The notes: generated from the letters alone by a model not told the origin. A stretch of 64,000 nucleotides of DNA from Eledone cirrhosa (GCA_964016885.1 OZ024740.1:103974001-104038000), one strand, 5' to 3'; shown: positions 23,581 to 58,325, counted from the first letter of the stretch. Program-made: numbers and translations.

Positions 23581-24193
23581 TTTGGAGTTTGTTATATTTC
23601 TCTCCAATGTAGAAAATAACATTAACAAAAAAACAATATATCTTAAGACAGAAATGTTTTTGAAAAAGTAATTTGTTTAAAATAAATGAAATAGATTCCA
23701 AATTGTTATAATTAACATTTTAAATAACATTCAATATCAATACTACCTGAAATTGTTTTCAATTTAATTTTTCAGATTATTTCTTTTATTTTAATCTTGA
23801 ACTTTTAAAAAGTTCTTTTATAAACATTTTATACAAATTTTACTTAAATTAGAATTTATTTAAATAAAAGAAAATCACATATTGACAGATTTTTTTCTTT
23901 AACAAAAAAAGGAACAACAATAACAGTTTAAATTTGAAAAGCAAGATGAAATATTTGAAAAGAAAGTGGAGTCAGTAGTGATTGGTGATTATATAAGAGA
24001 AATAACCAAGTGAGTTGTTATCAGTGGCACTCTAAAACATAAGCAAAACTCAAGGAATGCTGCATTTTATTTAATTTTATTTTGTTTTCAAGAATTGTGA
24101 TGACTAAAAGAGAAAAAAAAGGTTGTGTAGAGAACATGGCAATAAATGAGATGTAGAATAGTTAAGAGCTATAAGGAGGGGGGATTTACTCAC

Positions 24194-24266
24194 CTTCAGA
24201 TCTCTGTGTACAATACCATGGTGATGGCAATAATTAACACTCTCTAATATTTGCTGCATGCAGTGA
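24194..24266 (-). CDS. CaMKII: CaMKII kinase-domain exon '6b' (alphaE helix + HRD catalytic loop), 73 nt, alternative copy 2
   Basis: Minus strand ATTTCAG|T CAC TGC ATG...GAT CTG AAG|GTGAGT encodes (S)[24 protein letters not shown]. Same length and phase as 39309-39381; 17/24 residues identical. Confidence 0.95.
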
Positions 24267-24375
24267 CTGAAATATGAAAGAACAATGGATTTGCTGATCA
24301 AAAAGCAGCTCACATGTCACCATAGCAACAACTGTCTGACTGACTGACTACCCCATGCATTACTAGTGCAGTAAC

Positions 24376-24477
24376 TCCGCTGCAGCTATGCTTTTGATGA
24401 GAAATGGAAGGGAGAGGAGGAATTAGATTTTGCTTGCCCGACCACCATCCTGTACACTAGCCAGGCAGATTTTCAGC
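24376..24477 (-). promoter_or_regulatory. Candidate intronic docking element upstream of exon 6b
   Basis: Partner of 39169-39270. Between the two arms the transcript reads UCUAAU followed by a pyrimidine tract (24399-24427). Confidence 0.7.
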
Positions 24478-24567
24478 TTCAGAGGAGGACATTGGTGAGG
24501 GTACTGAAGTTTGTTGTGAGGTTGGCCATAAGTATGTGTTTTTTTTTGTGTATTTGCATGTGTGTTA

Positions 24568-24640
<73 letters not shown>

Positions 24641-24869
24641 AATGTGTGTACACAAAATAACAAAGGATTAGTATATATATATACATATATATATGTATAT
24701 ATATAAACTATTATCTAGCATCCATGTAAGAGAAATCTTATCTATATTGATATGAGAAAGAAAACTACTTTAAGAAGGAGAGAAAGGGAATGTATGTGTG
24801 TGTGTGTACTTGCATACATGTGAGTGAGTGCCTGTGTGTGTGCATATATATATATTAGAATTATTCAGT

Positions 24870-24928
24870 TGATACCATTTATATCACTACTTGGAGTTTC
24901 CACCAGAGTAGTGGTGTAAATGGTATCA
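24870..24928. repeat. Short hairpin palindrome
   Basis: TGATACCATTTATATCACTACT ... AGTAGTGGTGTAAATGGTATCA. Confidence 0.75.
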
Positions 24929-24996
24929 CTCACATATATTTAATAATTGTGCTCAACAAGTATTGAGTACTCATTTTCCCATTCATTTTAATCAAT

Positions 24997-25043
<47 letters not shown>

Positions 25044-25083
25044 AGAAAGATAGAGAGAGAAAGAAAGAAAGAAAAAGAAAGAA

Positions 25084-25157
25084 AGAAAAAGAAAAAGAAA
25101 AAGAAAAAGAAAAAGAAAAAGAAAAAGAAAAAGAAAAAGAAAAAGAAAAAGAAAAAG
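25084..25157 (+). repeat. (GAAAAA)n microsatellite
   Basis: Direct read. Confidence 0.95.
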
Positions 25158-26209
25158 AAGAGAGAAATGGGGATGAAGAAAGACAGAGCAGTAGAATTGG
25201 TACAGATATACTAATATTGCAAGAATTCCATTGAGAGACCTATTAGTCTAATACAATGATGTGCTGAATGAAAAGTACAATATGACATAGATGCTAGTGT
25301 TTCACTAACAATATCACGTAAGCCACAAATAGTGAGAAATTCTTAGAATCTTCAGGATTAGTGTCAATTTAGTATTTGATAAGAACTGCTTAACCCATTT
25401 TCATAATTATATTCTTTTAAAATAGATTTTACCTAAAAAGAAGACACACTTAATCATTTTGTGACATCTTTATGCAGAAATGTATAAGTGTGTCTGCGTG
25501 TGTTCGTGTCCACAAAGCTTAAGAAGTTTTATGGTAGAGTGAATTTACTGTCATGCAAGTGTATGTGGCTAGAAGTGGATATCATTCCAAAATCATTGAT
25601 TCTATAAATGGCTTCATGATGTAGGCCAAATGGATGGGGGTGTTTAGAAAGGGGTTATCATGTGCTAGTTTCCTGGACTCTAAACTGGATCACCACAGAA
25701 ACAAGTTCTTGAGACAAGTTACTTATAGCAGTAATAACTGTATCAGTGGCAGTAAATTTAGAAGCAAATAAAGATGAGATTATTTCAGGTTGACATAGAA
25801 AGTGAGTGATAAAGGCAAAATATAAAGACAAAAACAGAAACATCATACCCTTAATTGGTTCTGGACTATAGAATATTATGAATATAAAATTTTTCATAAA
25901 TTCTCCAGGAAAAGAGTTCTCTCATAATTTGCATTTTCTATTTACTGTCAATTAATGAAGCACTTTAGTTGCTAAAAAGCTATTTGAAAGCCAAGAGACT
26001 GCAGTGTCATATGTAACAGATATATCTAAAACATAACTATAAAGTTTACAGTGGTCAACTACTATCCACATAAATGTTCGAACTTTACCACAGTCCCTAT
26101 ACAGAACTCTTTGACAAGGCCCTTAATGCTCTGCATATGAAATCTTGTTTTCCCCACATATGATGACAAACACCCCTCCTATATATACATATGTGTGTGT
26201 GTCTATGTA

Positions 26210-26345
26210 AAGCAGTGAATTGGCAGAGTTAGAATGTCAGATAGAAGGCTTTATGGCATTTATCCTGGCTTTCTGCACTCTAGGTTCAAATTTGCCGTTC
26301 ATTCTTTCGAGGTCGATAAAACAAAAAACAGTTCAATACTGGAGT
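26210..26345 (+). mobile_element. tRNA-derived SINE (Deu/Nin-like core)
   Basis: TGGCAGAGTT A-box, GGTTCAAATT B-box, TTCATTCTTTCGAGGTCGATAAA core. Confidence 0.65.
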
Positions 26346-26559
26346 CAATTCTCTCTTTCATTCATTCTTGGTAAAAATATCAGCTGCATTCAGACCTGGT
26401 GAGAGATGGGTTTTGTCAAGTTTAAAATGTCACAACAGCACCTCCATCAGGTGTTATGGGTTCATACATACATATATTTATATATAAATAAATATATGTA
26501 CATACCCACACACATATATAAAGGACCCTCTCTTGCACGATCATTAGATTTTTTTAATT

Positions 26560-26990
26560 AGTAGGTCTTCAATTTTGTGTTCATGCCAACCTTTGCCTAT
26601 GGTCTTGAATTTTGGGTAACTACAGAAAAAATACGATTGCAAATACGAGCAGCAGAAATGGGGTTCCTCCAAAGTGTCTTTGGAGTAACATTACTTGATA
26701 GAGTGCGTAGCTCGGAAATCAGAAGGGTGTTCCAGGTAGAGCTGCCACATCTTCGAATTGAGAGATCACAGCTCCAATACTATAGGCATGTGGTTAGAAT
26801 GTATCAGGAAGGAATTGCTGGACAGATTTTACAGGAAAAAACCAACTGGCAGGAGAACCAGGGTAGACCCTGAGCAATATGGTTGGATAACATCCATGAG
26901 CTTGGCTGGATAACATCCATGAGCTTGGCTGGATCTCATCCAGCCAGATCAACTGGAGATGGTTGCTTATGACAGCCATGAGGAGCTGTG
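26560..26990 (+). mobile_element. 3' fragment of a second RTE-clade LINE family
   Basis: PTFAYGLEFW...IRAAEMGFLQSVFGVTLLDRVRSSEIR..IERSQLQYYRHVVRM is the typical RTE C-terminal region. 23-bp tandem duplication at ~26884-26933. Confidence 0.85.
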
Positions 26991-27170
26991 AGCACTGAAG
27001 TCAGTAAGGACACTAACTTCAGAGAGAGGTAAGGGAGATGTACTTCAAGTGAGAGGGGGGGATGCTGTGTAAGAGTATCTGGATGTCTCTGTTTCTTTTC
27101 TTGTTGAACTTTTATATGTGGGTCTACTGCATAGTTGATGCCTATATATATATATATATATATATATATA

Positions 27171-27545
27171 GGCACAGAAATAGCTGTGTGGTTAAGAAGC
27201 TTAATTCAAAACCCATAGGATTTTAGGTTCAGTCACAGTGCCTTGTGAATGAATTTGGTAAAAAGAAACTGTAAGGAAACCCACTGTGTATGTGTGTGTG
27301 TCTGTATATATACACATGCATAAACTGTGTGAGCATGTATATTCGTGACAGTTATCGCAAATGTATTATAACACCAATACATTTTGAAAATACGGGTTCA
27401 ATAAACATCAGTGGTATATTTACCATACTAAAAATAAAGTATGGGTTTGCACCAGAAAAAGCATTCAGCTGTGGAAAAGCTGCCTTAAAGGTCTTATCCA
27501 GCCTATGCATGCATGGAAAAACAGACGTAAATATGATGATGATTG
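27171..27545 (+). mobile_element. tRNA-head SINE with RTE-derived 3' tail
   Basis: TAGCTGTGTGG A-box and GGTTCAGTC B-box; ends CATGCATGGAAAAACAGACGTAAATATGATGATGAT like the RTE tail. 5' flank is (TA)n. Confidence 0.7.
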
Positions 27546-28100
27546 TGTGTGTGTGAAATGATGTGGGTTAGCTCATCAGGAACAATGTTTGGTCAGACTC
27601 ATTTTTGTGACATCAAATGTCACATTCAAATGAATCCAAAAACCAAACAAAAAAGAACAGTTTAAAGAAGTTATGAAAAAAGTTTATATTCGATTTTGTC
27701 AGAGCAAGGTACAGCATGATCAATCCTGGCCAGACTTGTCTCTCGATGTGTGTGTGTGATTCATATCCACACACACACACACACACACACATCATTGTTT
27801 ACACATCTGCTTTTCTAAGTTTGCATAGGTTGAACATATCTATCTATCTAGGGCGGGTAAAATTCCCGAGATCCATGGGCAAGTTCTCTCCAGCGGTCTC
27901 TGTCCCTCATTATTGCTGCCATGTCCTGCGTCTCCAACAGACTAGTGTCTGTCCTTAGGGCATCAACATGTGGTGTGATATTGACAAACATGAGAAAGAG
28001 TACTCAGTACTAACCAAAGTAGTCATTATTATGGCTATGTGGGGAGCTTTGTTAATCTGGAGTTTCACCTCTGTACTCAAAGGATCATCAGACAAGACAT

Positions 28101-28131
<31 letters not shown>

Positions 28132-28132
<1 letters not shown>

Positions 28133-28566
28133 CGATATTAACAAATGGAAACTATATTTATAAAACCATATTTATTTCATTATACATATTTCAAGGACAC
28201 CAAGTTAAATTATGGTGTGATTTCATCAGATAAAATATAATATAGATCAGTTTTATAAATAAATATTGACATACCCTTAAAGAATGCAACCATTGCAACT
28301 ATCCGGGAGCTTCCAACAGCAATGGTTGCATTCTTTAAGAGTATGTCAATATTTATTTATAAAACTGATCTATATTATATTTTATCTGATGAAAGCACAC
28401 CATAATTTAACTTGGTGTCCTTGAAATATGTATAATGAAATAAATATGGTTTTATAAATATAGTTTCCATTCGTTAATATCGTATTTTTACTCCAATAAT
28501 TTGTTGAGTGCTTTATATCAGTTATAAAAATATTTGGTTGTATCCCAACAATTTAAATAGAACTTT

Positions 28567-28568
<2 letters not shown>
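28132..28568. mobile_element. Penelope-like pLTR remnant forming a ~165-bp-arm inverted repeat
   Basis: 28132-28296 is the reverse complement of 28320-28484. (TA)n on both sides; each arm contains a hammerhead core. Confidence 0.75.
28378..28442 (+). ncRNA. Type I minimal hammerhead ribozyme (mirror copy on minus strand at 28173-28237)
   Basis: Stem I TATTTTAT/ATGAAATA, CTGATGA at 28386-28392, stem II AAG.ACACCA/TGGTGT.CTT, GAAA at 28423-28426, short quasi-palindromic stem III ATATGTAT, AUA cleavage triplet at 28432-28434. Confidence 0.7.
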
Positions 28569-28610
<42 letters not shown>

Positions 28611-29181
28611 CATACATATATATGTATGTAAAAGGTAAACAGAAATAACAACACAATTGGTACAGTATATGGAAGGTATATATTAAGTTAACGCTTGATA
28701 TAGCAGGAAGAGGGTCTTAATGTGTGTGGGGGGGGGGGCACAGTTATAGCTTAATTGACAGGCATGGGATCTATCAGGAATTATGTGATGAGCCAGTGAA
28801 GAAAAGGAAAATAGGAAAAAAAGGAAAAAGGGAAAAGGAAAAAATATATATAGAGGAATGAAGAAGATTGGAGGTGAACAGTTGTATGTATAAAAATAAT
28901 TAGTAGTATTGGTGTTAGCTATTACCTTTTTCTTGGTGGGTTTTTAACCTTTTTATGTTTTATAACCTAGGTAATCATTATGTTTGATAATGTATTTTAG
29001 TGTCTAGGTCAGAGACATTGTGTCTATTAAAGTGGCATCAGCTATGGGTTAAGATTAAATAAATTATCCTGTTGGTGTAGAAGTTTTTGTTTGTGTTTTC
29101 TTGGGTGGGTGTTGTGTGGGTGTCCAGTAGTGAAATGGCAACTAGTAACATTTCACATAAGATTGTATAAACATTTGTTAG

Positions 29182-29225
<44 letters not shown>

Positions 29226-29509
29226 CTACACACATACACATACACATACACACAAATATATATCAGCTGAACTTCTGATACACCAACACTGGATTTTACA
29301 ATATTCCAAGAGATGGCAAATCTGAATAGACTTGCTTTTTTCTCAAAGATTATTTTTTTAGTTTTAGCCATCTCATTTATTTTCTGATGGAGGACTAGCT
29401 TCTGAAACATTAAGACTCTCCCTACTGTATCAAATGTAAATAATATATATCTTCATTGTACTGTGTTGTTTGCGTTGTTATTTCTGTTTGACATATATAT
29501 ATATATGTA

Positions 29510-31849
29510 TGCACCTCCCAACATAGACTGATAATTAGCGACCTCATAGTCAGGACGAGACGTACTCGACAACAGAAGAGGACTATCCTCAGGAGGAAAA
29601 TATGGAAGCTAAAGGACCCCACAGCCAGGAATAAATTTCAAAGCATATTACTTGATGCTTTCGACAGTAAAGAAGAACATTTAGAGTCGGACAATATAGA
29701 GGGAGAGTGGGAATTTCTGAAAGCAAACCTGCTGTTGGCGACAGACGAAGTCTGTGGCTGGAGCAGGCCTGTAGGCAGGAGGAGAGTAACATGGTGGTGG
29801 AACAGTAAGGTGGAGGGGTCAATTAAGGCCAAAAAGCAGGCTTGGAAAGTATGGCGGGATGGGGGAAGTAGAGAGGACTATCAAGTGGCCAGGAGGGAAG
29901 CTAGGAGACAAGTGTACTTAGCAAGAAGGGAAGCTGAGGAAAGAAAGTTCAAGCATGTTCTACAACGCGATGACCAAAAACGTGAGGTGTTCAGGATTGC
30001 TAGGCAATGCGTCAAGGAAAACCGTGATATTGTCGGGGAGAAGTGTGTACTAAACGACGATGGCACACTTGCCATCACCGACGCTGATAAGAAGGTAGCT
30101 TGGAAGTGTCACTATGAAAGGCTACTAAATGAGGAGAATAATTGGGAGAAAGGCAGTCTCCCCCATATCGACCCAATAGAGGGACCAGCAGTGTTAGTCG
30201 AGGGGAGTATAATAAGTAAGGCAATCAAGGATATGAAGACGGGTAAGGCGGCTGGGCCTTCGGAAATAGTTGCTGAGATGCTGAAGGCATCTGGCACGGT
30301 GGGACACACCATGGTCACCCGCATAGTTAACCAAGTCGTACAGAATGGGGTTGTTCCGAAGGACTGGCATAGCAGCATCATCGTTAACTGTTATAAGGGT
30401 AAAGGAGACGCCCTAGATAGGAGTAACTATAGAGGCATTAAATTAATCGACCAGGTCATGAAGGTCACGGAAAAAGTAATAGCGCAACTAATCAGAGAGA
30501 GAATTGACCTAGATGAAATGCAGTTCGGGTTTGTGTCAGGCAAAAGTACCACAGACGCTCTTTTCATAGTACGACAACTACAGGAGAAGTACCTAGCTAA
30601 AGGTAAACCCCTCTACTTAGCTTTTGTCGACTTGGAGAAAGCCTTCGACAGAGTCCCCCGCTCCATTATCTGGTGGGCTCTTAGAAAACTAGGCGTTGAC
30701 GAATGGCTTGTGAGGGCTATACAAGCCATGTATAAAGAAACAGTCAGCAAGGTTAGAATTAACAACGAATATAGTGAAGAGTTTAGCGTAAAAGTTGGCG
30801 TCCATCAGGGCTCTGTTCTCAGCCCACTACTATTTATTATTGCCCTTCAGGCTATAACAGAGGAGTTCAAGACAGGCTGCCCATGGGAACTCCTATACGC
30901 AGACGACCTGACACTCATAGCGGAATCAATGGCCGAGCTAGAGAAGAAATTCCAAACATGGAAGCACGGCCTAGAGTCAAAAGGACTTAAAATTAACCTG
31001 GCTAAGACCAAAGTACTAGTTTGTAGGAAAGAAAACAAGGCGGCGGTCCCTTCTGGGAAATGGTCGTGCTCGGTGTGTAGGAAAGGCGTGGGTAGAAACT
31101 CCATTTTATGTCCTAAATGCAAAGTATGGGTGCATAAAAGATGTAGTGGGATCACAGGTAAGCTAACTAAGAACATAGATTTTACATGTGGCCGGTGCTC
31201 TGGTGCAATAAGTAGCAGCAAGTGCCCACAAACTACTAGCTCTTTCAATTGCGCAGAGGGTTCTATAGAAATAGTGGACAGCTTCCGTTACCTGGGCGAT
31301 AAAATCAGCAGTGGGGGAGGGTGCTCTGAAAGTACTGTAGCTAGAGTCAGAACTGGTTGGAAAAAGTTCAGAGAGCTTATACCACTATTAGCTGCTAAAG
31401 GGTTCTCACTAAAAATGAAAGGCAGGTTGTACGATGCCTGCATACGAACAGCAAGGCTGCATGGCAGTGAGACCTGGGCATTGTGTGCAGAGGATATACG
31501 CAGACTAGAGAGGAACGAAGCTTGCATGCTCCGCTGGATGTGTAACAGTAATATACGTGAACGGCAAAGCATAAACGAACTAAGGAAAAAATTAGAGATA
31601 AGAGGGATCAGATGTTTACTCGAGAGAAGGCTACGTTGGTATGGACACGTGATGCGCACGAAAGTCGATAGCTGTATAACAAAGTGCAGGGCAATAAAGA
31701 TAGACGGTAGTCACGGAATAGGCAGACCTAGAAAAACCTGGGACGAGCTGATAAACTCCGACATCACACACTTACACCTCTCCAAGACAATGTCACTGGA
31801 CCGAGACCTTTGGCGGTACTCAGTAACAGAGAAGACCCGCCTTACCTAA
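29510..31849 (+). CDS. RTE LINE ORF2 (N-terminally truncated): RT with inserted PHD-type finger
   Basis: Motifs [40 protein letters not shown]. The frame is open upstream of the called 29735 start, back to 29510. Confidence 0.9.
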   Translation, partial: CTSQHRLIISDLIVRTRRTRQQKRTILRRKIWKLKDPTARNKFQSILLDAFDSKEEHLESDNIEGEWEFLKANLLLATDEVCGWSRPVGRRRVTWWWNSKVEGSIKAKKQAWKVWRDGGSREDYQVARREARRQVYLARREAEERKFKHVLQRDDQKREVFRIARQCVKENRDIVGEKCVLNDDGTLAITDADKKVAWKCHYERLLNEENNWEKGSLPHIDPIEGPAVLVEGSIISKAIKDMKTGKAAGPSEIVAEMLKASGTVGHTMVTRIVNQVVQNGVVPKDWHSSIIVNCYKGKGDALDRSNYRGIKLIDQVMKVTEKVIAQLIRERIDLDEMQFGFVSGKSTTDALFIVRQLQEKYLAKGKPLYLAFVDLEKAFDRVPRSIIWWALRKLGVDEWLVRAIQAMYKETVSKVRINNEYSEEFSVKVGVHQGSVLSPLLFIIALQAITEEFKTGCPWELLYADDLTLIAESMAELEKKFQTWKHGLESKGLKINLAKTKVLVCRKENKAAVPSGKWSCSVCRKGVGRNSILCPKCKVWVHKRCSGITGKLTKNIDFTCGRCSGAISSSKCPQTTSSFNCAEGSIEIVDSFRYLGDKISSGGGCSESTVARVRTGWKKFRELIPLLAAKGFSLKMKGRLYDACIRTARLHGSETWALCAEDIRRLERNEACMLRWMCNSNIRERQSINELRKKLEIRGIRCLLERRLRWYGHVMRTKVDSCITKCRAIKIDGSHGIGRPRKTWDELINSDITHLHLSKTMSLDRDLWRYSVTEKTRLT

Positions 31850-32250
31850 ATATATAGTAAAACCTACTCCAGCCAGTAGGCATCTCTAACAAAATACACC
31901 CCGTCCCACCACCACCACCCCCACCCGATCCACACCACCCCATTCTATGTAAAGTTATGTTGGTGCCGCGCCATCGAGGCCGAAACAAATGAGATCGTGT
32001 AGGTGTCACAACAAAAAAACACACAGTCCACGCTGTAATGTGGCCGTGTAGGCAACACGGTAAAAACCTCCCAGACCCACACTGTAAATGTGGTTGGTGT
32101 TAGGAAGGGCATCCAACTGTAGAAAACCTGCCAGACAGTCCTATGCGAGCAAGACAATCACTCTTGTCTCAAGTGGGACTACCCCCGTCCAAACCCATGC
32201 AAGCGTGGAACACGGACGTTAAACGTTGATGATGATGATGATGATGATGA
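29510..32250 (+). mobile_element. Young 5'-truncated RTE-clade LINE
   Basis: Open frame from the end of the APE domain (CTSQHRLIISDL) through the RT, a ~380-nt 3' UTR and a (GAT)n tail. (TA)n immediately 5'. Confidence 0.95.
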
Positions 32251-32409
32251 TATATGAGAGAGAGAGAGAGAGATAGTGAAATACGTATCCTTGAATATGT
32301 TTTGCTATTTTGTTGTGGAACTAACTCTATACTGACCTCATCCTTCAGACTGAGTGTTCTACCAACTTCAGATATAACCTGTTTTTTTACCACTATAGAG
32401 AGAGAGCGC

Positions 32410-32446
<37 letters not shown>

Positions 32447-32727
32447 TTACCAAAAAAATGCTTATACAATCTTAATTTGAGAACTTTAAAGCTATAAATA
32501 TATGAAAAAATATTTTGCCTTAAAATCACAAAATTGTGATAAGTTAAAGAAATGATACTTTCCAGAAATTCCTCTATTCACCTCTTTATAGTGATACATA
32601 TTAGTAATTCTTACTTTATATAACTTAATTACATATAAAAAAATGTTTAAATAATCACCCTGACCAGAAGTCCATGTTTGTTTCTTGTGATAGTTAATAG
32701 ATGAATTTACAATCATTGCTCCTGATA

Positions 32728-32980
32728 TCATCATCATCATTATTTAACATCCATTTTCACTGCTAGCTTGGGTTAGACAAGTTGTCCCATTGTGAGATGA
32801 GTCAGATCAAGTTACTGTGTTTTGCTCATACAGAACTGATTCTAGCTTGGTTTTTATGGCTGGATGTCTTTCCTAACACCAAATACATTTACAACTGATA
32901 GGTTGGAATGGGGACATTGTCATCTTGTCACTAGCACGACCACCTTACAGGGTGGACTGGGTGTTTTTTGTTGTGTCACC
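32728..32980 (-). mobile_element. Short non-autonomous element with RTE 3' tail
   Basis: (CAT)n tail plus GGCTGGATGTCTTTCCTAACACCAA; homologous to 35127-35370 and 36845-37072. Confidence 0.7.
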
Positions 32981-35126
32981 AAAGGTACAAATATTTTATA
33001 AATCATTTGAAACTGGATTATAGTTTGTAATTAAAGGGTCATTATTATTATTATTTCCTGTGGTCACTCAAAGTTAGGTAGTTGGAACAGTGCGGTCACT
33101 CAAAGTTAGGTAGTTGGAACAGTGCCAAACCCAAATACTTATCCATGTGTATTCAGTTTTAAAAAGGTGCACTGTATTACTACATGCCATAAGAGTCAAC
33201 TAAAAGCGTTGAAATATATCAGTGGTAGAGCTAGTTTAACTAGTGGTGTAGATATGAATAATGATCATATTACCAAAATTTATAAATTTATGATTCTGTA
33301 TACTGGGTCAATATATTGTGCAGCAGCCTGGCTTAGTTCACATGATTCTTGTGACAAACAATCTCTACATTGACAAAATTAACACTTAATTATTTATATA
33401 TTCAGGAATAAAAGATAATAGTATTATTAGTGTTATAGAGGATTCAGTTTAAAGAGTAAATATAAATGTTAAGTTTCAACATTAACAAAGTCAGTAATTA
33501 TTTTAATTGAGTAGTAATTATTTCAAGTATCGAAGTAAGTCCTATGGAGGGTAAGTGGCAGAAAATTAATTCCTACATAGATGCATTCTCTACAGTCCCT
33601 CTCTGTATGGTGAAGCAGTGCTCAATATATTAGTGGTTATTATCATAGTTATAAAAAGTATTGTTAGAGAAGAAATGAGAGAAATTGGATTCTGTTTTTG
33701 TATTGTTTCCCTATAGTAGACATATAACTTTGCTGTGTAAGTATATTCCTGTAGAGCTAAAAGTTTTTTTATGATTTGAAGTGTTAGCTTCTTCCAAGGT
33801 TTGATCATGGGGAAGTTCCAAGATGAGGCCATGCAACTGGCTTCTACTATGCTATCAGCCTACACTCAACATCAATATCATTATATTATCCTCTGGAGCC
33901 TAATAGTTTATAGCTTAAATAAGTCTTAGTAATCCTATGTCAACATGCAGTAACTTTCTTCAATTTCTAGTTGAGTAGTGATATTTTCAAAGAGAATTTG
34001 CTTAGCTTCTTCTGTACAGAGGTTACATACTCTTCAATTTCCCATATATTGTAAAGCTCTTGCTAAAGATTTTTTACTGGGGATCATGTGTAGCTAGCTT
34101 GATAATACCATCACCTATTGCCTCTTAGAGTTGCAGAATGTATTCAGATGTTGGCTATATCATATCTTGAAGTTGATGGCTTATTTATGTAGTTACCTCT
34201 CACAATAAATAATACTTTTATCCAGGCAGTGGGAGTCAAGAGATCCTTCTCAAGAGCTAGTGCAGTTACTGCCAGAAGAGTTTGTCCTATCACTATATCT
34301 ACTATTCTCAACTCCTGCTAAGTTTAGCTAAATTGGAAGAAGTGATATTTTGTCCTAGGTTAGAAGTAGAGAAATTATAGAATTTTGCGATAGTATGATT
34401 AAAAATCATATGGTGTCTGTGTTGTGGAGGGAAATTCTTGCTCTGTAAGAAGAAAAAATGTCTTTAGAAAGCAGCTCTGAAGTTGTATCCTTCACCATCA
34501 TCTCTTTCTCCAAAACTTAATGTACATTTATTGTATACAGTTTGTATGTGTGTGTGCATATATCTAACTATTCATACATGTGTGTGTATGTATGCGCACA
34601 TGCACACACAATAGAACTTAATGCTAATTTACATTTATAATTTTTAAAATGAGAGACGCCTAGTTTGCTATACGAAGTCAGTGAAGATGATAATTATGAG
34701 ACAGTACCAGAAAATGCACAGATTAAAAATTTACTATTAAATGCTTATATGTTTTTGACATGATATATAGAGCTCTTTAAAGGTAAAAGGATATAGGAAC
34801 ATTACATTGGACAGTAACATAAAATATTAAGGTATACATCCTATAGACATATTTATTGCCATATTTGCCACGGTCTGATGGTACATTCATCTCAGTTCAG
34901 CTATTGATAATGCTTGCCTATTTTTATTAATACAAAGGAAATATCACAATACTATACACTTTATATAACATGCACAGATAGACACACCCACAAATATATG
35001 TATGTATTTATATATATATATACACACACACACGCATACACATATATATATATATATGTATAGGAAAAAGTATGACCCCGACGGCAGAGCTCAAGCCGTT
35101 TTGATGGCTATTTCTATATATATATA

Positions 35127-35370
35127 TGATCATCATCACCGTTTTACATCCATTCAACAAACGGTTGTCCTGTTGTGGGCAATGGTAGGTCGGGTGATCT
35201 TGTCTTGCTCATACAGGAACTGATTTGGGCTCGATTTCTACATGGATGCCATTCCTAGCACCAACCTCATTTACAGTGAGTGCTGGGTGCTTTTTTTTCC
35301 ATGGCGCCTACACAACCACTTTACAGTGTGGGCTGGGTGCTTTTTGTCATGACACCTCCATGACCACTTT
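35127..35370 (-). mobile_element. Short non-autonomous element with RTE 3' tail
   Basis: TTGTCTTGCTCATACAGGAACTGA, GGATGCCATTCCTAGCACCAAC; (GAT)n-type tail. Confidence 0.7.
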
Positions 35371-35939
35371 GTAGTGAGAGGGCATGACACACACACATAC
35401 ATACATGTGTGCGCTTACAAATGAATATGCTCATTTATAAATATATATAGACATTAAAAAATTGTGACTATCAGCAAGTAGATATTTGATATGTCTATAC
35501 AATGTTCACATACAAATACATTAATTTAGATTTCCACAGGTAGATAAATAGATAGATAGATAGATTGAAAGCTTTCAAGTGTGAAGATATATGTTACAGA
35601 AGCTTTGTAGCAAATATATATAGATGACTGTGAGGGGTGTTATAAAATTAATTTATATAATAAATCAAAAGTAAAGTCGATGTAGTGGACTATTGAAGTC
35701 AAGCAATGATAAAAACTATTACATAATAAGTTAAACAGGAATTCAATTAATACGAGTGTCTTACAATACCCATGAAATTAGGCACACCTTTCATTGACTG
35801 TATGTCAACAAACTATCAATACCTAAGTGGTCACATAGACAAATGTGTGTATCATCATCATCATCATCATTATTTTACGTCCACTTTTCCCTACTTGTAA
35901 GGGTGGGACAGTGTATATATATATATATATATGTATATA

Positions 35940-36840
35940 TATAGAAATAGTGGACACCTTCCGTTACCTGGGTGAGAAAATCAGCAGTGGTGGAGGGTGC
36001 TCAGAAAGTACAGTAGCTAGAGTCAAAACGGGATGGAAAAAGTTCAGAGAGCTTATACCACTATTGGCCGCTAAAGGGTTCTCCCTAAAAATGAAAGGCA
36101 GGTTGTATGATGCCTGCATACAAACAGCAATGTTGCATGGCAGTGAGACTTGGGCATTGTGTGCAGAGGATATACGCAGACTGAAGAGGAACGAAGCTTG
36201 CATGCTCCGCTGGATGTGTAATAGTAATATACGTGAACAGCAAAGCATAAACGAACTAAGGGAGAAATTAGGAATAAGAGGGATCAGATGTTGTTTACTC
36301 GAGAGAAAACTACGTTGGTATGGTCACGTGATGTGCATGAAAGACGACAGCTGTATAAAAATGTGCAGGGCGATAAAAATAGACGGTAGCCACGGAGTAG
36401 GCAGACCCAGAAAAACCTGGGACGACTTGATAAATTCCGACCTCACACACACCGACCGAGATCTTTGGCGCTACACAGTAATACAGAAGACCCGCCTTGC
36501 CTATGTACAAAGCGAAACCTACAGTCAGTAGGCACCTCTAACAAAAATACACCCCCGTCCCACTACCCCCACCCCATCCACACCACCCCTTTCAATGTAA
36601 AGTTATGTTGGTACCACAACATACAGGCCGAAACAAATGAGGTCGTGTAGGTGTCACGACAAAAAACACAGTCCACGCTGTAATGTGGTTGGTGTTAGGA
36701 AGGGCATCCAGCCGTAGAAAACCCGCCAGACAGTCCTATGCGAGCAAGACAACCACTCTTGCCTCAAGTGGGAAAATTCCCGTCCAAACCCATGCAAGCA
36801 TGGAAGATGGACGTTAAACGATGAGGATGGTGATGATGAT
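35940..36840 (+). mobile_element. 5'-truncated copy of the young RTE LINE
   Basis: EIVDTFRYLG...RDLWRY nearly identical to 31265-31849. (TA)n 5' flank and (GAT)n tail. Confidence 0.95.
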
Positions 36841-36844
36841 ATAT

Positions 36845-37072
36845 ACCCACACTGTAAAGTGGATGTGTAAGTACCAAGGAAAAAAAAAAGCACCCTGTAC
36901 TCACTGTAAATGAGGTTGGTGTTAGGAAGGGCATCCAGCTATAAAAATCAAGCCAGAATTAGTTCCCGTATGAGCAAGACAAGGTCAGCCGACCGGACAC
37001 TGCCCACAACAGTACAACCCATCTAACCCATGCTAGCGTGGAAGAACAGACGTAAAACGGTGATGATGATGA
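36845..37072 (+). mobile_element. Short non-autonomous element with RTE 3' tail, directly after the LINE
   Basis: GTTGGTGTTAGGAAGGGCATCCAGC..ATGAGCAAGACAA..CCCATGCTAGCGTGGAAGAACAGACGTAAAACGGTGATGATGAT. Confidence 0.75.
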
Positions 37073-37644
37073 TATATATATTTGCTGTGACCCATCTTCT
37101 CTCTCTCCTTCTACCTACCTATTTCGTTGCTTTCTACTCTTCCCTCTTTCTTTCTCTCCCTTTCTCCCTCTCTCTGCCAGCCACCTCATTGTTTCCCTCG
37201 TCTGACCCTCTAGCAGTCCTTTTCTCACTTACACTCACTGGGGTCAGACGTGTCTTTTCGTTCGCCCACACACTCTCGAACTTACGTTCAGCTATCGATG
37301 TGGACTTGGATTTTCTTACTTTAAGTTGCTTGCACATTCCTCGGATTGTTGTTTTTTCCCGCTGTTTTTCTCTTTTCTTCCCTTTTTTTCCTTTTCCTTC
37401 CCTCCCTCCATTTTCTGACAACTGATGAGGAAAATTACCCCCCACGTTCTTGCTTTCTTCTTATTCTTATTCCTATTTTTAAGCCCACCTATATATATAT
37501 ATATATCATTATCTATAATATATATATATACACACATGCATTCATACACACGGACGCATTCATGCACATGAACACATTCATACAGTACACACACATTACG
37601 CAAATATATATTTGTAGGCATACACACATGTACTAGTATGTATG

Positions 37645-37693
<49 letters not shown>

Positions 37694-37695
<2 letters not shown>

Positions 37696-37885
37696 CAAAG
37701 GAGTTGTGGTAAGGTACCAGATGGACCATAACGCACCAGAGCACTCAATACTTAGGGTAGTAGAGTGGGTAATAGGAAAATGTATGACCCCGACGGGAGA
37801 GCTCAAGTAGTTTCGACTGCTATTTCTGGACTCCAGAAATAGCAGTCGAAACTGCTTGAGCTCTGCCGTCAGGGTCATAGATTTT

Positions 37886-37890
<5 letters not shown>
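37694..37890. mobile_element. Penelope-like pLTR fragment with fold-back (partial hammerhead)
   Basis: Palindrome at ~37772-37890 centred at TGGACTCCA containing CGAAAC.GC-TTGAGCTCT-GCCGTC. Near-identical to 46778-46970 and the fragment at 35060-35115; embedded in (TA)n. Confidence 0.65.
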
Positions 37891-37950
<60 letters not shown>

Positions 37951-37951
<1 letters not shown>

Positions 37952-38388
37952 AAAATCTATGAACGTGAATTTCCTGGGCAGACTGTTCCATTAATCAAAT
38001 CATTTGGAAGAATCGTCAGAATGACCAGATATCTGACAAGAATAGGTGTGTATATATGTGCACACACACATATATACACACCTGTTCTTGTCAGACATCT
38101 GGTGATTCTGACGATTCTTCCAAATGATTTGATTAATGGAACAGTCTGCCCAGGAAATTCACGTTCAAGTTAACATGAAATTAACAAATACACGTTCCCT
38201 TAACAGAGTTCGCAGGGTTATTCAACAGGGTGAATTCAAGCTACAACTAATTCTTGTCAGCTGTGTGGACTGGTGCAAGGTGAAATAGAGTGCCTTGCTC
38301 CAGTACACTGTGCACTACCAAGAATTGAACTCCCAATCTTATGATCATGAGCTGAAAACCTTATCCACTAAGCTATGTGCCTTCACAC
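37951..38388 (-). mobile_element. tRNA-derived SINE (38070-38388) with inverted duplication of its 3' ~100 bp (37951-38060)
   Basis: Reverse-strand head GAAGGCACATAGCTTAGTGG...GGGAGTTCAATTC. Arms GAACGTGAATTTCCTGGGCAGACTG.../...CAGTCTGCCCAGGAAATTCACGTTC. Confidence 0.8.
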
Positions 38389-38615
38389 ACAAACACGCAT
38401 TTATGTAAAAGTGTGTGTGTGCATGCACGCGCATGTATCATCATTATTTTCGATCTACTTTCCATACTGGCATGGGTTGGGTGACTTGATAATTTGAGTT
38501 TTTATTTAGCATTACTGCCCCCCTGGATTAATCAGAGGAACATCTTGCATTGTTTCAGGGTTTCAGTTACGTAGTGCACTGGAAGCATTTTATCAAGGTA
38601 CCAGCATGTGCATGC

Positions 38616-38618
<3 letters not shown>

Positions 38619-38694
<76 letters not shown>

Positions 38695-38695
38695 T
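38619..38695 (+). repeat. (GA)n microsatellite
   Basis: Direct read. Confidence 0.95.
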
Positions 38696-39168
38696 GAGAA
38701 AGAGAAAGAGTAAATGAATGCAATAATAATTGAAGTATAGAGCGGGTTTTAATTTGTCCTGTCACACAAACACACACACTCAAATATATACATGTGTGTG
38801 TGTGAGTGTGTGTGTGTGTAAACAACAGTTGACTTAAGAAGTATTGTGGTCTGCAGAGAAGCAGCATTTCCTATATCCTTTACAGGTCCTCTGAAACAGG
38901 TTAGATTGGTATGGTTGATGTTCAATTTGAACGTTTTTCTATAAAGAGTTGTAATTTGATTATACACACTCAGAAATAACAATTTGTTTATTTGTAGGAA
39001 AAAGAATATTTATGCAAAAGGAAAGGACCAAAACCAAAATAAAAGAAAAAAAAGGAATAAATCAAATGAAACCAATCCCTGCCCTGCTGCCAAAAACTGT
39101 GGGTAAAATATGTACTTGTAAGGAAAGGAATCTATGTCAGCTGATAACTCAGTGTCATTTGAACCATG

Positions 39169-39270
39169 GCTGAGAATCTTGCCGAGCTGGTGACCAGCAG
39201 GTGGAGAGCAAGCAAGCTGGCAGACAGCCAAGATGGTGGGTGGGAGACATATGAACATATCTGCTGCGGA
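39169..39270 (-). promoter_or_regulatory. Candidate intronic RNA-pairing element downstream of exon 6a
   Basis: 39169-39215 is complementary to 24430-24477 (about 39 of 47 nt pairable, including 2 G-U). 39254-39270 is complementary to 24376-24392 (15 of 17). Unique, GC-richer than the surroundings. Confidence 0.7.
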
Positions 39271-39308
39271 ACAGAACATAATTTCACTACTTTGCGTCCT
39301 GCACCCAC

Positions 39309-39381: not shown

Positions 39382-39783
39382 CTGAAAAGATATAAGATAA
39401 CAGCATGTAGCAAGCACAAGTAGGAGAGAGAGAGAGAGATAGAGAAAGTAAGAGGAGATATAGACAGAGAGAGAGAAAGAAAGAAAGAGGCTAGTTCATT
39501 TTGTGAATGATGCTGAAGGATGCTGGCAGCAAAATGCTAAGATATCAATAGTGCCACTGCATATGAATGCAATGTTATGATGCCAGCGTGAAGTTTAGTA
39601 GGCACATTCAAGGCTCAAATCATGCTGTTTAAAGAGCAGTGGAGTGAAGTAGTAATGATTAAATCAACTGCTTCAAAGAAGAAAGTAAAAAAGCTATTAA
39701 TAGAATACAGATTTTTAAGAATGTTACCGAAAAGGTGGGGGAAGGCACAAATTAAATTAAGAATGAAATATATATATATATAT

Positions 39784-40000
39784 GGGGTTTATAACCCTCA
39801 GAGAAATGGAAAAAGATGAGTATTGATGTACATGGGAGTCGAACCCACATCTTTGGTTATCCAGACCACTGTGCTACCATTACACCAACACACCACCCGG
39901 GTAATGGTAGCACAGTGGTCTGGATAACCAAAGATGTGGGTTCGACTCCCATGTACATCAATACTCATCTTTTTCCATTTCTTTGAAGGTTATAAACCCC
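39784..40000. repeat. Fold-back inverted repeat (~100-bp arms) of a tRNA-like sequence
   Basis: 39784-39883 is the reverse complement of 39901-40000. Confidence 0.9.
39824..39894 (-). pseudogene. tRNA-like cloverleaf (SINE head or pseudo-tRNA), GGA at the anticodon position
   Basis: GGTGTGT tg GTGT-AATGGTA-GCAC a GTGGT-CTGGATA-ACCAA agat GTGGG-TTCGACT-CCCAT GTACATC a. Multiple G-U pairs, an anticodon-stem mismatch and U37 argue against a functional tRNA. Confidence 0.65.
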
Positions 40001-40101
40001 ACTATCGGACTAAAATTTCTTTAGTAAAAAAATACGGTGAAAGCTCCTATTTCTAATTTCATTAATTTCAAACACGCTCACAGCTTCAAAAACATACTAA
40101 C

Positions 40102-51998: not shown

Positions 51999-52062
<64 letters not shown>

Positions 52063-52118
52063 TATATATATGAATATATATATATATATATATGAATATA
52101 TATATATATATATATATA

Positions 52119-52181
<63 letters not shown>

Positions 52182-52210
52182 TATATATGAATATATATTC
52201 ATATATATGA

Positions 52211-52249
<39 letters not shown>

Positions 52250-52256
52250 TATATAA

Positions 52257-52296
<40 letters not shown>

Positions 52297-52455
52297 GAAT
52301 ATATATATATATATATATATGAATATATATATATATATATGAATATATATATATATATATATGAATATATATATATATATATATATATGAATATATATAT
52401 ATATATATATATGAATATATATATATATATATGAATATATATATATATATATATA

Positions 52456-52507
<52 letters not shown>

Positions 52508-52510
52508 TAT

Positions 52511-52577
<67 letters not shown>

Positions 52578-52588
52578 TATATATATAT

Positions 52589-53124
52589 CATCATCATCAT
52601 CATCATCAGGTTTAGCGTCCGTGTTCCATGCTGGCATGGGTTTGGACGGGGGTTTTCCCACTTGAGGCAAGAGTGGTTGTCTTGCTCGCATAGGACTGTC
52701 TGGCGGGTTTTTCTACAGTTGGGTGCCCTTCCTAACACCAACCACATTTACAGTGTGAGGCTGGGAGGTTTTTACCGTGTTGCCTACACGGCCACATTAC
52801 AGCGTGGACTGTCTGGCGGGTTTTCTACAGCTGGATGCCCTTCCTAACACCAACCACATTTACAGTGTGGGGCTGGGAGGTTTTTACCGTGTTGCCTACA
52901 CGGCCACATTTACAGCGTGGGACTGTGTGTTTTTTGTTGTGACACCTACACGATCTCATTTGTTTCGGCCTGGATGTTGTGGGACCAACATAACTTTACA
53001 TTGAAAGGGGCGGTGTGGATGGGGTGGAGGTGGTGGGACGGGGGTGTGTTTTGATAGAGATGCCTACTGACTGTAGTAGGTTTTTACTTTGTATTTAGGT
53101 AAGGCGGGTCTTCTCTATTACTCT
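52589..53124 (-). mobile_element. 3' end of the young RTE LINE with duplicated UTR block
   Basis: (CAT)n tail, UTR with a ~110-bp direct repeat, terminal codons of ORF2; inside (TA)n. Confidence 0.9.
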
Positions 53125-53234
53125 CTATATATATATATGAATATATATATATATATGAATATATATATATATATATGAATATATATATATATATATATAT
53201 ATGAATATATATATATATATAAATATATGAATAT

Positions 53235-53292
<58 letters not shown>

Positions 53293-53334
53293 GAATATAT
53301 ATATATATATATAAATATATATGAATATATATAT

Positions 53335-53369
<35 letters not shown>

Positions 53370-53392
53370 AATATATATATATGAATATATAT

Positions 53393-53427
<35 letters not shown>

Positions 53428-53567
53428 AATATATATATATATATGAATATATATATATATAAATATATATATGAATATATATATATATATATATATATGA
53501 ATATATATATATATATATATATATGAATATATATATATATATATGAATATATATATATATATATATG

Positions 53568-53675
<108 letters not shown>

Positions 53676-53690
53676 AATATATATATATAA

Positions 53691-53741
<51 letters not shown>

Positions 53742-53742
53742 A

Positions 53743-53776
<34 letters not shown>

Positions 53777-54082
53777 GAATATATATATATATATATGAAT
53801 ATATATATATATATATATATGAATATATATATATATATATATGAATATATATATATATATATATGAATATATATATATATATGATATATATGAATATATA
53901 TATATATATATATGAATATATATATATATATATATGAATATATATATATATATGAATATATATGAATATATATATATATATATATGAATATATATATATA
54001 TATATATATATATGAATATATAAATATATATATATATATATAAATATATATATATAATATATATATATATATATGAATATAT

Positions 54083-54200
<118 letters not shown>

Positions 54201-54208
54201 GAATATAT

Positions 54209-54315
<107 letters not shown>

Positions 54316-54422
54316 TATATAAATATATATATATATGAATATATATATATATATATGAATTATATATATATATATATATATGAATATATATATATATATG
54401 AATATATATATATATATATATA

Positions 54423-54462
<40 letters not shown>

Positions 54463-54537
54463 TATATATATATATACATGTAAGTATGTATGTATACGTA
54501 CATACATATATGTATACAGACGTACAGTAGCATGCAC

Positions 54538-54581
<44 letters not shown>

Positions 54582-54769
54582 TATATATATGTGCATGCTA
54601 CTGTACGTCTGTATACATATATGTATGTACGTATACATACATACTTACATATATATATATATATATTCATATATATATATATATATATATATATGTGCAT
54701 GCTACTGTACGTCTGTATACATATATGTATGTACGTATACATACATACTTACATATATATATATATATA

Positions 54770-54839
<70 letters not shown>

Positions 54840-54853
54840 TATATATATATATA

Positions 54854-54889
<36 letters not shown>

Positions 54890-55035
54890 TATATATATTC
54901 ATATATATATATATATTCATATATATATATATATATATTCATATATATATATTCATATATATATATATATTCATATATATATATTCATATATATATATAT
55001 ATATTCATATATATATTCATATATATATATATATA

Positions 55036-55099
<64 letters not shown>

Positions 55100-55109
55100 T
55101 ACATATATA

Positions 55110-56101
<992 letters not shown>

Positions 56102-56166
56102 TTATATATATATATATGAATATATATATATATATATATATATATGAATATATATATATATATATA

Positions 56167-56210
<44 letters not shown>

Positions 56211-56316
56211 TATAAATATATATATATAAATATAAATATATAAATATAAATATATATATATAAATATAAATATATAAATATAAATATATATATATAAATA
56301 TAAATATATAAATATA

Positions 56317-56488
<172 letters not shown>

Positions 56489-56503
56489 AATATGTATATA
56501 TAT

Positions 56504-56540
<37 letters not shown>

Positions 56541-56566
56541 AATATATATATATAAATATATATATA

Positions 56567-56662
<96 letters not shown>

Positions 56663-56679
56663 AATATATATATATATAA

Positions 56680-56743
<64 letters not shown>

Positions 56744-56749
56744 GAATAT

Positions 56750-56780
<31 letters not shown>

Positions 56781-57067
56781 AATATATAAATATATATGTA
56801 TATATATATATATAAATATATATATATGCATGAATATATATCTATCTATATATGCATCAATATATATATATATATATATACACATGAATATATATATACC
56901 TATATATGCATGAATATATATATATATGCATTCATAATATATATATATATGCATGCATAATATATATATATGCATGCATAATATATATATATATATCTAT
57001 ATATCTATATATGCATGAATATATATATATATGCATGCATATATATATATATATATATATATATTCA

Positions 57068-57167
<100 letters not shown>

Positions 57168-57219
57168 TGCATATATATATATATATATATATATATTCAT
57201 GCATATATATATATATTCA

Positions 57220-57257
<38 letters not shown>

Positions 57258-57363
57258 TGCATATATATATATATATATATATATATTCATGCATATATAT
57301 ATATATATATTCATGCATATATATATATATATATTCATGCATATATATATATATATATATTCA

Positions 57364-57398
<35 letters not shown>

Positions 57399-57562
57399 GC
57401 ATATATATATATATATATTCATGCATATATATATATATATATTCATGCATATATATATATATATATTCATGCATATATATATATACATATATATATATAC
57501 ATTCATGCATATACATATATATATATATATAAACATGCATATATATATATATACATTCATGC

Positions 57563-57593
<31 letters not shown>

Positions 57594-57955
57594 CATGCAT
57601 ATATATATATATACATTCATGCATATATATATATACATATATATATTCATGCATATATATATATATATATATATTCATATATATATATATATTCATGCAT
57701 ATATATATATATATATTCATGCATATATATATATATATATTCATGCATATATATATATATATATTCATGCATATATATATATATATATTCATGCATATAT
57801 ATATATATATATTCATGCATATATATATATATATATTCATGCATATATATATATATATATTCATGCATATATATATATATATATTCATGCATATATATAT
57901 ATATATATTCATGCATATATATATATATATATTCATATATATATATATATATTCA

Positions 57956-58017
<62 letters not shown>

Positions 58018-58020
58018 TGC

Positions 58021-58054
<34 letters not shown>

Positions 58055-58060
58055 TCATGC

Positions 58061-58094
<34 letters not shown>

Positions 58095-58100
58095 TCATGC

Positions 58101-58134
<34 letters not shown>

Positions 58135-58236
58135 TCATGCATATATATATATATACATATATATATATACATATATATATACATATACATATATATATAC
58201 ATATACATATATATATACATATACATATATATATAC

Positions 58237-58273
<37 letters not shown>

Positions 58274-58325
58274 CATATATATATACATATACATATATAT
58301 ATACATATACATATATATATACATA

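Follow-up and report, generated by a model that had tools for sequence, protein, structure and literature searches.

How does a transcript choose between two alternative exons that lie 15 kb apart? This question of how two-exon clusters remain coordinated across a very long intron arises in cephalopod genomes, where neural genes can have introns of this length. One case is found in a 64,000-nucleotide (nt) stretch of the Eledone cirrhosa genome (GCA_964016885.1, OZ024740.1:103974001-104038000; hereafter the window, whose positions are used throughout), the minus strand of which carries three coding exons of a CaMKII gene. These are exon 6a (39381-39309, 73 nt), reaching from helix E to the catalytic HRD motif, exon 6b (24266-24194, likewise 73 nt), which has UGCAUG at its start, and the constitutive exon 7 (13835-13733), which holds the DFG motif. 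Exons 6a and 6b are separated by 15,042 nt, and 6b and exon 7 by 10.4 kb.

An earlier note on this DNA recognised the gene and its alternative exon pair, which the exons and their peptide matches confirm, and proposed that two nested RNA helices bridge the 6a-6b intron. One of them, helix 1, is a real long-range complementarity between single-copy sites at the two ends of the intron and is probably under selection. We give about an even chance to the reading that it is a selected bridge of the type known from the FGFR2 IAS2-ISAR stem, which would shorten 15,042 nt of intron to approximately 256 nt and bias the choice between 6a and 6b.

Pairing between the ends of the 6a-6b intron

Helix 1 is formed by a 5' arm (A1, 39215-39169, minus strand) that begins 94 nt into the intron and a 3' arm (B1, 24477-24430, minus strand) that ends 163 nt before exon 6b. 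It comprises 38 pairs over 47 nt (22 G-C, 14 A-U, and 2 G-U), or 39 when one flanking base is counted, in agreement with the approximately 39 of 47 counted by hand in the earlier note, and has an energy of -57.7 kcal/mol. Outside the helix, 93 nt of intron remain next to 6a and 163 nt next to 6b; the loop is 14,691 nt, and the claimed looping-out of approximately 14.7 kb follows from this geometry.

The arms are mutually best partners among approximately 3,177 windows of the 64 kb, with energies of -58.6 versus -46.3 for the next partner of one arm and -58.5 versus -40.8 for the other. When blindly chosen flanks, 200 nt at the start and 250 nt at the end of the intron, were compared with dinucleotide shuffles, none of 300 shuffles matched the strength of helix 1 (z -7.1, extrapolated tail ~6e-5), and a repeat with other window sizes also gave 0 of 300. 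The net gain from co-folding the two ends, -23.4 kcal/mol, was reached by none of 150 shuffles (z -3.5). Among 300 random pairs of GC-matched real DNA from the locus, three were equally strong and all three were multi-copy repeats; both sides were single-copy in seven pairs, the strongest of which reached -40.3. The comparison with shuffled and random pairs had been suggested in the earlier note and favours helix 1. The helix is also the strongest of 15 splice-site flank pairs around exons 5, 6a, 6b, and 7.

Uniqueness of the arms, likewise claimed beforehand, was borne out by a DNA search of the genome, which recovered the sister exon and nothing else, and by a search in which a 22-mer and a 21-mer taken from the arms had one match each at up to two mismatches; inverted copies of a dispersed repeat are rejected as the source of the arms on this ground. 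Rfam returned no family match on either arm, its sole match being a tRNA at 39824-39894. In foldings of excerpts that omit the 14.7-kb loop, helix 1 has a predicted probability of 0.87-1.0 under every condition tried.

The second proposed helix does not hold up as well. Its arms, 39270-39254 and 24392-24376 (both minus strand), like those of helix 1, are present at the positions claimed for them, and the distances were correctly reported: the 5' arm lies 38 nt past the 6a donor and the 3' arm ends 110 nt before 6b. The 15 of 17 pairs claimed can nearly be drawn (14-15 pairs, -19.6 kcal/mol), but 274 of 1000 region shuffles equal them, the ensemble probability is approximately 0, and the 5' arm is only the third-ranked partner in the window for the 3' arm. 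Each arm is predicted to fold locally, the 3' arm with 24371-24357, and forcing helix 2 costs 13.2 kcal/mol, or 8.1 kcal/mol with the 6a donor held open. Helix 2 is rejected as the likely fold, being at chance level and 8-13 kcal/mol worse than the alternatives; its 5' arm is unchanged in other organisms, with no listed change in the four runs compared below (X9, X10, X11, and X24), which leaves helix 2 improbable rather than rejected outright.

Folding prefers two extensions of helix 1 together with a local hairpin at the 6a donor. One predicted extension, H3c, pairs 39231-39219 with 24352-24340 (p 0.7-0.9); the other, H3a, pairs 39256-39246 with 24318-24308 over 11 bp (p 0.99 with the donor held open), its 3' strand ending 10 nt before the proximal branch-point candidate of 6b. 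In the predicted hairpin the 6a donor region (39311-39302, GT at 39308-39307) provides the 5' strand and CACCCACC (39242-39235, no listed change) the 3' strand, with p ~1.0. With the donor held open, 39302-39282 is predicted to pair with 24279-24260 at the 6b acceptor. All of these strands lie on the minus strand. The opening energy of the hairpin is matched by 3 of 40 shuffles, and at five other 6a loci 1, 10, 15, 20, and 34 of 40 shuffles were as good. A conserved hairpin over the 6a donor is rejected, given that one of those five loci stands out at 1 of 40 and the rest do not.

Conservation in close relatives and at distant loci

A search with sequence words of the 3' region (24150-24520), which is mostly intronic, yielded 24 runs in all. 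The 31 words are complete in three runs from organism A; the share is 0.65 in 11 runs from organisms B-F and 0.55-0.58 in five probable RNA runs from organisms B and G. Run X20, with a share of 0.19, is left out of account. Letter-level comparison covers the 5' region in four of the 24 runs, namely X9, X10, X11, and X24, representing organisms D, E, F, and G, respectively. Single contigs of X9, X10, and X11 span the whole of A1, in which the sole listed change over 47 nt is at 39184 in D, E, and F, a C that stands opposite U and is unpaired in helix 1. In organism F the 140 nt of 39169-39308 have one listed change and the 339 nt that follow have 21 (Fisher p 0.007). The D and E contigs match as far as 39095, beyond which 205 other letters replace 150 nt. 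X24, raw RNA of which approximately 6% was read, yielded two reads over A1 on the strand expected for a stranded library.

Nearer to exon 6a, D, E, and G have listed changes at 39228, 39250, and 39290 and a one-base insertion beside 39290. Set against the 3' side of the window in the donor-open fold, those at 39228 and 39290 turn G-U into A-U pairs and that at 39250 turns A-U into G-U.

A degenerate exon-6 pattern recovered 65 metagenome loci and had no match in the genome-contig or viral-contig collections. Both exons are present in six loci on five contigs (L027, L038, L048, L055/L056, and L071), of which four appear molluscan and one annelid-like by peptide. On these five contigs, the 6a-6b introns span 637-1,592 nt and, short motifs excepted, align poorly with one another. 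No end-to-end duplex was detected in any of the five by the blind test (z -1.2 to +1.5, compared with -5.9 for the window), and deep conservation of the duplex is rejected. In the comparison of flanks that the earlier note had called for, A1 is kept letter by letter in D, E, and F, the 3' region is matched by word share, and the distant loci lack the duplex. Its absence from paired loci with short introns suggests that helix 1 may have arisen together with intron expansion, that is, as the cephalopod intron grew.

Whole-intron folding of L038, L048, L055, and L071 against shuffles gave z of -3.54, 0.26, 0.17, and -1.78. The first six bases of the 6a intron are identical in all five mollusc-like loci (L038, L048, L055, L071, and L079), and L038, L048, and L071 have, by eye, a branch-point-like motif approximately 190-240 nt before 6b that resembles the motif at the end of B1. 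Stems of other kinds were observed in these introns. That of L027 contains a near-perfect local stem of approximately 15 contiguous pairs at about +1112 to +1295, 300-480 nt before the 6b acceptor, and long internal stems also occur in L038, L048, L055, and L071. Many annelid-like copies (L026, L028, L030, L031, L034, L035, and similar) run from exon 5 through a 6b-type exon to exon 7 with no detectable 6a. L027 keeps both exons, and it seems that a paralog or lineage has lost the pair.

Possible roles of the duplex in exon choice

Exon 6a is transcribed at least 15 kb before 6b, and a transcript committed to 6a must therefore ignore 6b until exon 7 is made. We propose that helix 1 would close once B1 has been transcribed, with B1 lying 163 nt ahead of the 6b acceptor, and that the shortened intron would place the 6b-proximal block (branch-point-like motif, pyrimidine tract, and UGCAUG) 100-170 nt downstream of the 6a donor. 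Sequence following the donor could then pair onto the region preceding the 6b acceptor, and a 6a-committed transcript would hold 6b repressed until exon 7 appears 10.4 kb later, a Fox-type protein being a candidate helper. A coupling of 6a selection to the 6b acceptor, as advanced in the earlier note, is plausible, though the folding model yields no clean switch.

The end of the intron contains two sets of candidate splice signals on the minus strand. The proximal one (24303-24267) comprises a branch-point candidate with its A at 24298 (by eye), a pyrimidine tract, and the acceptor. The other, at the base of helix 1 (24425-24380), is a candidate decoy or cryptic acceptor composed of CUAAU (A at 24422), a pyrimidine tract, and three AGs. 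Its CUAAU motif is unpaired in all four predicted folds, and hypothetical splicing from exon 5 to 24390 or to 24379/24385 would introduce a stop or a frameshift. As a distant branch point for 6b, A24422 is disfavoured because 12 AGs lie between it and the acceptor AG, so there is no AG exclusion zone. Between the two sets lies a UGCAUG (24359-24354, minus strand), which we take to be a Fox/RBFOX motif and which is a candidate site for such a protein.

In favour of a selected bridge that steers exon choice are the strength, mutual preference, and uniqueness of the arms, the retention of the 5' side in relatives, where the listed substitutions outside A1 keep their predicted pairs, the word share of the 3' region, the FGFR2-like topology and GCAUG placement described below, TGCATG at the start of 6b in all four distinct 6b exons beside a 6a versus 2 of 15 single-exon copies, the annotation of both isoforms in Octopus, the premature stop on double inclusion, and the intron-expansion origin proposed for the ATE1 pairing. 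Several observations weigh against it. The foldings leave out a loop that holds strong repeats of its own, and the helix is nearly as stable on the opposite strand (-56.3 versus -57.7 kcal/mol) and hence bears no RNA-strand signature. The extensions are borderline, the zipper between donor and acceptor regions being equalled in 55 of 1000 shuffles and the donor hairpin at the 3 of 40 given above. The changes tolerated in the 5' region fit the pairing weakly: 71% of transitions there are tolerated, four such changes would all be tolerated by chance in about a quarter of cases, and X9, X10, and X24 carry identical changes where covered and so are not independent. Totals for the aligned pieces run 2-4 above the changes listed individually. 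Conservation of the 3' region is seen at the level of word share, and the 11 missing words could include B1. Sequence beside alternative exons is often conserved where no pairing exists. Both X24 reads continue past the 6a donor without splicing, and X24 gave no read in which 6a is spliced. The duplex is missing from the distant paired loci. The UGCAUG of the intron sits in paired sequence in the predicted folds and, with a background of 1.08 per kb, is weak on its own; the count of exonic TGCATG is confounded by clade and excludes five loci of unclear status.

Joining 6a to 6b shifts the frame (73 nt is not a multiple of three) and brings a stop after 10 shifted 6b codons, so that strict exclusivity need not depend on helix 1. 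This point also bears on a more ambitious scheme in which the duplex enforces exclusivity as a clamp with a switch. Helix 1 would join the intron ends while 39302-39235 either hides the 6a donor, so that 6b is used, or, once U1 opens the donor, zips onto 24318-24308 and the acceptor, leaving the branch point too close for joint use. The two predicted states lie 10.3 kcal/mol apart, near the computed U1 pairing of -11.0, and the donor-open fold does contain H3a at p 0.99 and the pairing of 39302-39282 with 24279-24260. Its predicted path from donor to branch point is 62 nt, or approximately 48 nt with the inner hairpin collapsed, close to the threshold of ~50 nt given for steric exclusion (PMC7969005, PMC5740500). 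However, pairing takes up 10 of the 19 acceptor bases when the donor is closed and 11 of them when it is open, which is no clean switch, and the branch-point candidate changes in the wrong direction (6 of 7 bases paired closed, 0 of 7 open). The changes in D and E widen the gap between the states to 16 kcal/mol, neither zipper nor hairpin stands clear of shuffles here or, for the hairpin, at most other 6a loci, and the frameshift already eliminates double inclusion. We regard such a switch as unlikely. A cephalopod-specific elaboration is unlikely too: a clamp that arose with the approximately twenty-fold growth of the intron, whose strand toggles between hiding the 6a donor and masking the 6b acceptor while crowding the branch point, so that the RNA remembers the 6a choice over minutes and ADAR editing of the two A-C mismatches could tune the ratio of the two kinase-core isoforms.

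Helix 1 might instead form and be conserved without steering exons, easing the processing of a long intron or serving as a landing duplex for ADAR. Coleoid cephalopods have high ADAR activity, helix 1 has two A-C mismatches (24472 and 24458), and the duplex is missing where the intron is short. There is little reason, though, to aid the splicing of an unproductive 6a-6b junction; editing in two intronic arms would not recode; far better ADAR substrates exist in the same intron (172-nt and 101-nt arms at 97%); and the two reads that cover one arm show no edit, which together make this rather unlikely. That the complementarity is a coincidence between GC-rich splicing elements kept for protein binding, or a decayed inverted duplication, or that no helix is ever formed over 14.7 kb in living cells, would accord with the lack of strand asymmetry, the local fold available to each arm, and the five paired loci without the duplex. 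The tail of ~6e-5 in the blind test at this intron, a co-folding gain that no shuffle reached, and the retention of A1 while adjoining intron was replaced speak against it, and we hold it to be distinctly unlikely. Least of all do we favour a docking/selector-like network in which helix 1 is one part and approximately 39563-39534, upstream of 6a, pairs downstream of exon 5 or of 6b. This segment gives the second and third best z among the 15 flank pairs, with contig C1708 at about 34088-34052 downstream of exon 5 (minus strand, 1 of 300 shuffles) and with 24046-24015 downstream of 6b (minus strand, 10-bp perfect core, 2 of 300 shuffles). After 15 comparisons these results are weak, with energies of about -24 to -25 kcal/mol; pairing with the site downstream of 6b would loop out both exons, no matching selector precedes 6b (19 of 30 shuffles as good), and such pairing was found in none of five other loci tested (the exon 5 end of L027 being placed a few bases off). 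A network of this kind is very improbable.

Known systems, the exon pair, and other features of the window

A selected bridge would have a counterpart in the IAS2-ISAR stem of FGFR2, which Muh 2002 and Baraniak 2003 are said to have described between exons IIIb and IIIc. That stem lies in the intervening intron, as does helix 1 with one element near the 6a donor and another nearer 6b, and it is shorter, with a span below 1 kb, whereas helix 1 has 38 bp across 14.7 kb. The two are not homologous, and helix 1 is known here from sequence and predicted folds. The FGFR2 stem activates IIIb and represses IIIc, and Fox-bound GCAUG occurs both downstream of ISAR and inside IIIc (PMC2471395, PMC12772994). 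Both genes have a mutually exclusive two-exon pair whose double inclusion shifts the frame, and each has two elements in the intron that can pair as a stem; they also have in common a GCAUG past the 3' arm and another in the second exon (CaMKII 24359-24354 and the start of 6b), with weak significance. The FGFR2 pairing is reported to be conserved from sea urchin to human, whereas helix 1 was not found beyond the close relatives of the window.

The ATE1 R2-R5 pairing spans 30 kb, encloses exon 7b, sets the isoform ratio rather than exclusivity, and has been proposed to have evolved against intron expansion (PMC7797038). Like helix 1, it bridges upwards of 10 kb at a cluster of two exons, but helix 1 encloses no exon, as B1 ends before 6b, and no competing elements comparable to R1R3/R3R4 upstream of both exons were found at CaMKII. 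A bridge between ISRE1 and ISRE2 in SCN-alpha genes (-17 to -23.6 kcal/mol, involving Rbfox2) promotes skipping of exon 5b and has been tested in minigenes (PMC12772994); it too combines an RNA bridge with Fox sites at a two-exon pair in a neuronal gene and is weaker than helix 1. FGFR2, ATE1, and SCN genes already provide examples of this kind of mechanism, and the 30-kb span in ATE1 exceeds the 14.7 kb seen here.

The earlier note had compared the duplex to docking and selector pairings in insect Dscam1, Mhc, and 14-3-3, and this analogy fails. In Dscam1, Mhc, 14-3-3zeta, and serpent, a flanking intron pairs with internal introns in competition and exons are looped out (PMC6071210, PMC4691838), and internal introns show no tendency to pair among themselves (PMC6071210). 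Long-range intronic pairing at tandem duplicated exons is shared, but helix 1 is a single non-competing pairing within the internal intron (39308-24267). No competing second partner for A1 or B1 was found in the window or in the remaining 14 pairs of flanks, one of the flanks being that of the exon 5 donor on C1708, a search that covered the 64 kb and these flanks but little of intron 5 beyond the window. Membership of the docking/selector class is rejected, since one intron holds both arms, no exon is looped out, and no competing partner was found.

Dscam exon 17 reportedly combines steric exclusion with RNA structure. In steric exclusion, as in OGDH 4a/4b, the branch point lies near the upstream donor, at under ~50 nt (PMC7969005, PMC5740500). 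CaMKII resembles this in having a branch-point-like motif and pyrimidine tract far from the acceptor, at the end of helix 1, where structure could shorten the path, and differs in its linear donor-to-branch-point distance of 15 kb and in the 12 intervening AGs. Mouse and human CAMK2D also have exons 6A and 6B (PMC12060085, PMC9741552), which are mutually exclusive and tissue-biased, with 6B at approximately 10% in mouse olfactory bulb (PMC12060085). Vertebrate CAMK2D and cephalopod CaMKII are alike in the tandem duplication of the same kinase exon, and the CAMK2D passages give no RNA-structure mechanism (PMC12060085). A literature search on exclusive exons of CaMKII/CAMK2D, cephalopod CaMKII splicing, long-range structure in cephalopods, and competing structures in molluscs found no description of the helix 1 pairing, most subscription papers and all supplements lying outside its reach. 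The two 47-nt arms make a compact and defined target for blocking or exchange. Should the bridge be confirmed and prove absent from relatives with short introns, the locus would offer a clean natural test of the idea that long-range pairings arise to offset intron expansion.

The exon pair itself is well documented. The 6a and 6b peptides share 71% identity, differing at 7 of 24 residues in the catalytic core beside the HRD motif, and in a search of 3.0 Gb of genome DNA each exon had the other as its sole further match. The 6a peptide is identical to annotated Octopus isoforms (P0154, P0179, and P0181) and the 6b peptide to CaMKII records of Octopus and cuttlefish. In Octopus, a relative, the annotation includes both isoforms: P0154 (6a) and P0007 (6b) have 478 residues and carry the alternative exon at the same place. 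The gene models P0001 (Nucella) and P0126 (Owenia) each have 6a and, after it, a portion of 6b, which indicates that the tandem pair is old; it is found in cephalopods, one gastropod, one annelid, and mollusc-like contigs. Tandem exon-6 copies also occur in fish gene models (P0122), and high-scoring matches to the 6a peptide were seen among chelicerate records (P0216 and others from horseshoe crabs). When exon 6a and its translated 5' flank served as a protein query, one protein was found, unrelated outside the exon.

Exon 5 is absent from the window and from the next 120 kb and was located on the unplaced contig C1708 (34196-34132); one earlier exon is on another unplaced contig, C1413, and the later exons continue on C1. 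Positions 52000-64000 of the window consist of very low-GC simple sequence with an assembly gap at 61449-61648. C1708 starts with similar low-GC sequence and so probably belongs in this gap.

Other repeats were noted in and around the 6a-6b intron. At approximately 39783-40020, 400-640 nt upstream of exon 6a, a tRNA-like element folds back on itself almost perfectly; ARAGORN identifies tRNA-Ser at 39823-39895 and Rfam a tRNA, and the element is probably a short repeat. Within the intron, inverted repeats at 28125-28490 and 37960-38167 supply the 172-nt and 101-nt arms mentioned above as candidates for ADAR editing, and nested inverted repeats occupy 35001-37949.

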